This document shows positions 35,623 to 35,832 of a stretch of 64,000 nt of DNA, in pieces. The translations under genes and the position numbers were made by a program. Source of the stretch: Escherichia coli (GTDB taxonomy: Bacteria; Pseudomonadota; Gammaproteobacteria; Enterobacterales; Enterobacteriaceae); the NCBI RefSeq assembly GCF_017348835.2, contig NZ_CP071375.1; one strand, given 5' to 3'. Positions within the stretch are counted from its first letter, which is position 1, and each line of letters starts with the position of its first letter. The notes below the pieces were generated by a model. It saw only the letters and a program-made list of their open reading frames with translations, was not told where the DNA came from and ran no database searches.

Positions 35623-35832
35623 ATGGAAATAAAGACACGGAGAGAAACCAGGCAGACGTTGGCGCAGTGGTTTGAAGAGAAGGGATTTCAGAAGGGATAT
35701 CAAGAGGAACTCCAGAAGGTAAGACAGGAATTCGCCCAGCGTTTTCTAAGTAAAGGGATGTCTCGGGAAGACGTTGCAGAGGTGACAACTTTACCTCTTA
35801 CAGAGATTGATAAGCTAATTAACTCTAACTAA
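35623..35832 (+). CDS. small protein paralogous to the RpnC C-terminal module (free-standing duplicate)
   Basis: 69-aa ORF with SD aaggga (35613-35618); TLAQWFEEKG...RQEF...KGMSREDVAEVTTLPLTEIDKLIN matches rpnC 3' end at protein and DNA level. Confidence 0.6.
   Translation: MEIKTRRETRQTLAQWFEEKGFQKGYQEELQKVRQEFAQRFLSKGMSREDVAEVTTLPLTEIDKLINSN

Follow-up and report, generated by a model that had tools for sequence, protein, structure and literature searches.

A free-standing paralogue of the RpnC antitoxin module between rpnC and panC in Escherichia coli, with a helix-1 repeat length unlike that of its neighbour

Downstream of rpnC in Escherichia coli, a 69-aa open reading frame (ORF; 35623-35832, + strand) encodes a second, free-standing copy of the C-terminal module of the Rpn nuclease RpnC, and in none of the natural combinations that we compared does the length of its hypervariable first helix equal that of the neighbouring protein. 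The ORF lies in a 64,000-nt stretch of contig NZ_CP071375.1 (assembly GCF_017348835.2), referred to here as the window, and is the gene published as rpnC_Ss, a downstream second copy found in some E. coli strains (Zhong et al. 2023, PNAS 120:e2307382120; PMC10400941; Fig. 2I, SI Fig. S3C). With roughly even confidence, and on the basis of sequence comparisons, we regard rpnC_Ss as an RpnS paralogue that has been maintained, is probably expressed and is non-cognate, and that also serves the rpnC 3′ end as a recombination partner. Previous work has already described the gene, its origin and a suggested role, so the finding opens no new question; what is added here is the repeat-length mismatch between the long RpnC protein (RpnC_L) and Ss, a prevalence figure, and the presence of the gene in other Escherichia species. 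Searches of the literature turned up neither expression data for rpnC_Ss nor any study of it published after 2023.

Rpn nucleases have only recently been recognised as an antiphage defence of the toxin-antitoxin type, in which the antitoxin gene lies within the toxin gene. Translation from internal starts gives rise to the RpnS proteins, which block the RpnL nucleases and are thus antitoxins of the full-length nuclease (PMC10400941). For RpnC, both the internal translation start (iTIS) and the RpnC_S protein have been demonstrated in K-12, where a shorter RpnC_S transcript starts inside rpnC, and the related RpnA_S is a dimeric three-helix bundle (PMC10400941). The first helix of RpnS proteins contains a hypervariable number of 4-aa repeats, and RpnC_L is blocked solely by an RpnC_S whose repeat number equals its own, one added repeat being enough to abolish its activity (PMC10400941, Fig. 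4D). The derivation of rpnC_Ss from rpnC was proposed because RpnC_Ss clusters with RpnC_S, and the Ss gene was reported to be lost either by deletion or by fusion to the rpn N-terminal domain (PMC10400941). In an accompanying commentary (PMC10400984), it was suggested that the extra copy decouples toxin and antitoxin.

The gene order in the window is yadE, panD (-), rpnC (+), the small ORF (+), panC (-) and panB (-), and the order panD-rpnC-ORF-panC is common to the window, the RefSeq genomes and other Escherichia. The rpnC gene (34682-35554, + strand) encodes a PD-(D/E)XK Rpn nuclease, the toxin RpnC_L, of 290 aa (NCBIfam TIGR01784, E 6.5e-80), and the identical locus is annotated as rpnC in RefSeq. 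Within its 3′ end lies the intragenic RpnC_S unit (35390-35554, + strand), which comprises the Shine-Dalgarno (SD) sequence GGAGGGGAG at 35390-35398, an in-frame ATG ATG at 35402-35407 and then 50 codons up to the rpnC stop codon at 35552-35554; in the window, this unit is assigned by sequence identity with K-12. A 68-nt spacer (35555-35622, + strand) separates the rpnC stop from the ATG of rpnC_Ss, which is preceded at a distance of 4 nt by the SD sequence AAGGGA (35613-35618), so the initial annotation, which had placed a 69-aa ORF with its own SD about 70 bp past the rpnC stop, described the arrangement well. Elsewhere in the 64-kb window, the only match at the Rfam gathering threshold is a full-length tp2 sRNA (RF02030; 10732-10845, - strand; 103 bits).

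Judging from the alignment of the two copies, the small ORF originated as a direct tandem repeat of the rpnC 3′ part. A BLASTP comparison between the ORF and residues 235-290 of RpnC gave 40 identical residues out of 64 (63%) with one 8-aa gap (E 1e-21), and the ORF duplicates the last ~48 codons of rpnC. At the DNA level, repeat search and alignment delimit an upstream copy at 35407-35552 and a downstream copy at 35655-35824, both on the + strand, which align in register as 35407-35457 with 35655-35705 (80% identity) and 35441-35552 with 35713-35824 (85%). The offsets of these two pairs differ by exactly 24 nt, and this indel, by which the downstream copy is the longer, corresponds to two of the hypervariable 12-nt (4-aa) repeats; a period-12 array is also detected inside the ORF at 35678-35702 by TRF. 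A local tandem duplication of the rpnC 3′ end, as claimed in the initial annotation, is thus borne out, well above chance, by the in-register repeats and the BLASTP match, but its description of the DNA as near-identical overstates an identity of 80-85% interrupted by a 24-nt indel, and the longest exact run common to both copies is only 24 nt (ATGTCTCGGGAAGACGTTGCAGAG, at 35486 and 35758).

Between the two window copies, dS is ~0.33 and dN ~0.10 (dN/dS 0.31 over 45 alignable codons), and a synonymous divergence of this size indicates that the duplication is old. In E. marmotae and in cryptic Escherichia clades, the gene is likewise located at this site and separated from rpnC by the 68-nt spacer, and this, together with the high dS between the paralogues, points to an old two-copy state. 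Similarity can be demonstrated only from ~35407 and ~35655 to ~10 nt beyond each stop codon, and neither the 68-nt spacer nor the initial 11 ORF codons have significant similarity to rpnC or its 3′ flank: when the spacer was compared by local alignment with the flank after Ss, as a possible diverged copy of it, 103-183 of 2000 shuffled sequences scored as high, and 447 of 2000 did so when the 11 codons were compared with rpnC upstream of the iTIS. The duplicated unit may therefore have been the rpnC 3′ part alone, or a full second copy of rpnC whose 5′ part was lost later.

The identity of the encoded protein is also clear from its family assignment. The initial annotation had proposed an antitoxin-like or dimerisation module, and this module can now be named as the RpnS domain: beyond the BLASTP match to RpnC, the ORF matches positions 213-273 of TIGR01784, in the C-terminal part of that model (E 2.8e-8), its close homologues carry PF27070 (HTH_Rpn_C), and the published gene is of this kind (PMC10400941). 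A Pfam-A scan of the window ORF itself, with the library used here, gave no match at E<=0.001. An AlphaFold2 model built from 20 sequences, of moderate confidence (pLDDT 70), is all-helical, with helices at residues 13-20, 26-44, 48-55 and 59-67 and a disordered stretch at residues 1-9; its first helix is long and kinked, and the two after it are short. Foldseek against the PDB returned nothing significant, the RpnA-S crystal structure 7th0 appearing at E 9.4 with a TM score of 0.62 normalised to the target, and a sequence search of the PDB retrieved a designed 'CAP repeat' protein and weak winged-helix matches only, without RpnA-S. In PADLOC, residues 21-67 of the ORF (35683-35823) give a weak match to the C terminus of RmrA (PDLC03946, positions 290-336 of 357; E 5e-4), and no match was obtained for full-length RpnC.

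A query covering the spacer and the ORF (35555-35845) was matched over at least 80% of its length in at least 1554 of 5426 complete E. coli genomes (~29%), with an identity of at least 99% in 175 of these carriers, while the non-carrier genomes match it through the rpnC 3′ end alone (58% coverage). K-12 has no downstream copy, its rpnC (300 aa) being followed directly by panC, and O157:H7, E2348/69 and PE144 are likewise single-copy strains without rpnC_Ss. The initial annotation had considered that disruption or absence of the ORF in most strains would speak against its reading; absence is indeed the majority state (~71% of complete genomes), but disruption is not, as the carriers almost always have an intact ORF.

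The annotation of the gene in RefSeq is inconsistent, which is of some practical importance. In PGAP, it appears as a normal CDS of 65-77 aa under the label 'RpnC/YadD family protein' or 'hypothetical protein', or else, under the names 'hypothetical protein' or 'transposase', as a pseudogene fragment flagged 'missing N-terminus', as in PapM-32-1, CP53, SSGNw1 and Nissle 1917, the first two of which carry the exact allele of the window, so that the window allele is currently called a pseudogene. The flag 'missing N-terminus' is raised because the ORF lacks the nuclease domain, and pseudogene status is not borne out, given that the ORF is intact with its SD and ATG in nearly all sampled loci, with a dN/dS of 0.17-0.56 between alleles and of 0.31 relative to the paralogue. 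In a collection of ~15 billion proteins, the exact 69-aa product was not found, but the collection does contain relatives different by one residue and a 57-aa version called from the TTG at 35659 (P0012).

The length of the first helix of rpnC_Ss bears on its mechanism, and we measured it as the number of residues between the invariant WFEE and GMSRED motifs, where the 4-aa repeats lie. In the window, this region has 17 residues in RpnC (RGRQEERQEFVLRLLNK) and 25 in Ss (KGFQKGYQEELQKVRQEFAQRFLSK), so that Ss is longer by 8. The survey included approximately 45 loci (not the whole population), namely the window, 18 RefSeq E. coli two-copy loci and the contigs encoding eight Ss alleles, among them those of E. 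marmotae and the cryptic clades, and it yielded 24 distinct combinations of L and Ss, with 17-57 residues in L and 21-33 in Ss. In none of the 24 are the two lengths equal, and the differences extend from -32 to +12 residues. The same Ss allele is paired with different L lengths, and an L of 17 residues occurs with an Ss of 21, 25 or 29. Like other RpnS proteins, the Ss alleles vary in the number of repeats, which are built from units such as FQKG, YQEA and RQEV, and the composition of the repeats also differs between the two proteins (FQKG/YQEE in Ss versus RQEE/RQEV or KGIE in L). The commonest Ss alleles have a 2-aa deletion (VRLAQR instead of VRQEFAQR), because of which they are out of the 4-aa register with every L allele. 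Since the observed length distributions would yield only ~0.5 matches by chance among 24 pairings, this result should be understood as a lack of co-variation rather than as active avoidance.

These lengths bear directly on the possibility that RpnC_Ss is a cognate second antitoxin, which would bind and inhibit the adjacent RpnC_L and form a pool expressed and regulated apart from RpnC_S, in the manner of the two-layer control suggested in the initial annotation. Such a role would fit the homology of the ORF to a proven antitoxin module, the existence of free-standing DUF4351 RpnS genes elsewhere and of an expressed RpnE_Ss (YpaA) (PMC10400941), the decoupling proposed in the commentary (PMC10400984), and the conservation of the ORF, SD and ATG with dN/dS below 1. 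However, a single-repeat mismatch was sufficient to abolish the inhibition of RpnC (PMC10400941), whereas here the lengths are unequal in every pairing and the repeats differ in composition as well, and ~71% of genomes manage without the ORF. Because the lengths never match and one extra repeat is already not tolerated, it is unlikely that the ORF simply provides a reserve antitoxin against its neighbour, although the mismatch rule was shown for one engineered repeat in RpnC_S and not for natural Ss proteins (PMC10400941). Overall, we consider a cognate second antitoxin unlikely. An equally tentative proposal, at the other extreme, is that RpnC_Ss is deliberately non-cognate and does not neutralise its neighbour, but acts either as an expressed spare cassette that could recombine with the rpnC 3′ end and so reset the specificity of toxin and antitoxin, or as a sensor or decoy directed at the phage factor that is thought to drive repeat variation; if true, this would explain why the repeat number of Ss drifts independently of rpnC and never matches it.

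Whether rpnC_Ss is maintained at all can be judged from its conservation in the same set of loci. Almost every locus has an intact ORF, which begins with the same ATG behind AAGGGA exactly 68 nt past the rpnC stop, AAGAGA replacing AAGGGA in one clade and the spacer being 43 nt long in one divergent allele. Nonsense mutations in Ss are absent from the ~45 loci. The exceptions are a protein with an internally frameshifted stretch (P0111) and four loci (L045, at 779-2000, and L046-L048) in which an IS3-family transposase (HTH_Tnp_1/rve) lies between rpnC and Ss and has replaced the N-terminus of Ss, the product being called as a 69-aa protein (P0081) with a foreign N-terminus. Purifying selection, the absence of which would have told against the initial annotation, is visible in both segments of Ss that were analysed, with a dN/dS of 0.17 over its 20 N-terminal and of 0.56 over its 23 C-terminal codons, compared to 0.14 for the same C-terminal segment of rpnC, 0.04 for the rpnC nuclease domain and 0.025 for panC, all calculated by the Nei-Gojobori method over unique alleles, from few sites and non-independent pairs. 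The ORF is thus constrained, but its C-terminal helices appear to be relaxed or diversifying relative to the copy in rpnC. In four sampled contigs (L020, 1000-1932; L025, 1000-1932; L037, 1036-1932; L043, 712-1585), the nuclease part of rpnC is frameshifted or split while the RpnC_S-coding 3′ end and the Ss ORF are intact, and the small modules may outlive the toxin.

Comparison of the tails and flanks of the two copies also suggests exchange between them. Three Ss alleles (L003, L014 and L015) end in the tail EMANLPLAEIDKMIN* followed by GTTGTCTGC..., and the same tail is found on the single rpnC of E2348/69 and PE144. In K-12, rpnC (L002, 1740-1858) ends in ...DKVINLI* (Ss: ...INSN* or INLN*) and continues into a flank of the post-Ss type, both of which resemble Ss and not the rpnC copy of two-copy strains, suggesting that the K-12 reference rpnC is itself an L-Ss fusion product. 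What looks like another natural fusion is P0077, a partial protein from a metagenome-assembled genome labelled Klebsiella sp., which combines an rpnC-type head (…ETGGKSMMTLAQ…KGIEKGIEKGMEKG…) with an Ss-type tail (…EVTALSLAEIDKLINSN). These putative mosaics and fusions agree with the published loss of Ss by deletion or fusion (PMC10400941).

Such mosaic tails would also fit if rpnC_Ss were a functionless by-product of recombination, left over from repeat-driven tandem duplication at a hypervariable locus and kept in frame by gene conversion from rpnC and in-frame 12-nt indels rather than by selection on a protein. The absence of the copy from most genomes, the pseudogene calls for the window allele and Nissle 1917, the C-terminal dN/dS of 0.56, the occasional disruption by an IS or a frameshift and the lack of the exact protein from the large collection would all be in line with this reading. 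Nevertheless, the window copies are not homogenised, and with a dS of 0.33 against a dN of only 0.10 between them, non-synonymous change has been held down. In addition, the 11 N-terminal codons specific to Ss, its ATG and its SD have no counterpart in rpnC from which they could be converted, and yet they are nearly invariant across Escherichia, and no locus has acquired a nonsense mutation. A by-product of this kind is, in our opinion, somewhat less probable still than a cognate antitoxin.

With regard to expression, a scan for sigma-70 promoters and intrinsic terminators over 35100-36000 found none in the spacer between rpnC and the ORF, and the RNA fold of the spacer is no better than that of shuffled sequence (z +0.86). 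A TTGTCT-19 nt-GATAAT element was spotted by eye as a possible promoter, but its spacing is off-consensus and it was not relied on. The first strong hairpin past rpnC lies after the ORF, between it and the convergent panC (35893-35923, perfect 10-bp arms, fold z-score -2.3, no strand assigned); it resembles a terminator for panC and is the sole candidate for ending the rpnC/Ss transcripts. AAGGGA at 4 nt from the ATG is compatible with separate translation, although some gene callers use the alternative TTG start noted above for P0012. The conservation of this ATG and SD is not independent proof of translation, since the non-coding spacer (5.3% pairwise difference) is about as conserved as the N-terminus of the ORF (3.6%).

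The spacer and the neighbouring flank have some features of their own. With ~5% pairwise difference, the spacer has diverged much less than panC has at its synonymous sites (17%), and it could be that an operator, a promoter element or a recent sweep underlies its conservation. It contains an exact 10-nt direct repeat, CCAGATAATT, at 35578-35587 and 35603-35612 (25 nt from start to start), which is conserved throughout E. coli and almost unchanged in E. marmotae. In the flank past the Ss ORF, the window has an extra small hairpin at 35863-35880 (ACGTCATCGCCATGACGT), and a similar sequence occurs in O157:H7 (L051) but is absent from most of the sampled two-copy strains. The rpnC-panC intergenic region of this O157:H7 genome (G5295; L051, 880-1177) is 298 nt long, compared to 73-81 nt in other single-copy strains, and contains an extra palindromic insert after the shared hairpin.

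It is highly improbable that the ORF encodes instead a helix-turn-helix (HTH) regulator which binds DNA, for instance the two CCAGATAATT repeats, and controls transcription at the convergent rpnC/panC locus rather than the nuclease protein: RpnS proteins are related to HTH motifs by HHpred (Zhong et al., PMC10400941), the ORF has weak sequence and fold matches to HTH and winged-helix proteins, the 10-nt repeat lies in an unusually conserved spacer and rpnC-panC is listed in MG1655 as a convergent overlapping pair (excludon), but DNA binding has been reported for no RpnS, the structural matches are all non-significant and the spacer repeat could be a chance pair, as two-copy short families often are.

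Taken together, the reading that we prefer is that of a maintained, non-cognate RpnS paralogue. According to this model, rpnC_Ss is a separately encoded paralogue of the RpnC_S antitoxin, i.e., of the C-terminal HTH_Rpn_C module of RpnC, and would probably be co-transcribed with rpnC and RpnC_S, because the 68-nt spacer has neither a terminator nor a stable hairpin, and translated from its own SD. Like other RpnS proteins, RpnC_Ss would form a small helical bundle that dimerises through its long first helix, with partner specificity set by the length of this helix. Since helix 1 of Ss is never equal in length to that of its RpnC neighbour, the window Ss would most likely pair with itself and leave the adjacent RpnC_L unneutralised, behaving as a decoupled, non-cognate antitoxin-type module. 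At the level of DNA, rpnC_Ss would recombine with the rpnC 3′ end both by gene conversion and by L-Ss fusion, an example of the latter being the rpnC of K-12 type. Its number of 12-nt repeats varies independently of that of rpnC. An antitoxin-type copy uncoupled from the toxin in this manner may be considered a natural experiment on how the specificity of the 4-aa repeats evolves once the obligatory co-variation has been broken.

Several known genes may be compared with the window ORF. The rpnC_Ss gene of Zhong et al. 2023 is the same gene, and there is structurally no difference between the two. An analogue is YpaA (RpnE_Ss) of K-12, which is also a free-standing small gene located downstream of an rpn gene (rpnE) and a duplicate of the C-terminal RpnS module, and whose protein was detected by SPA tagging in K-12 (PMC10400941); unlike rpnC_Ss, it is of independent origin (it clusters with RpnE_S), occupies another locus and is present in K-12.

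Compared to the intragenic RpnC_S, Ss has the same domain (~70% identical), the same WFEE...GMSREDVAE...EIDKLIN framework and a hypervariable helix 1. However, RpnC_S overlaps the toxin gene, owing to which it and the toxin necessarily co-vary, whereas Ss is uncoupled from the toxin and has a different repeat number; Ss is also distinguished by an 11-residue N-terminal extension (MEIKTRRETRQ), by a C-terminal SN and by codons at the iTIS position that are no longer ATG. In other species, free-standing RpnS genes of the DUF4351 (PF14261) or HTH_Rpn_C (PF27070) type have the RpnS module as a gene of its own beside an rpn nuclease gene, as is the case here, and those with DUF4351 serve together with the rpn genes (PMC10400941). 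In contrast to those systems, the nuclease gene in the window still encodes its intragenic RpnS, so that Ss is a supernumerary copy.
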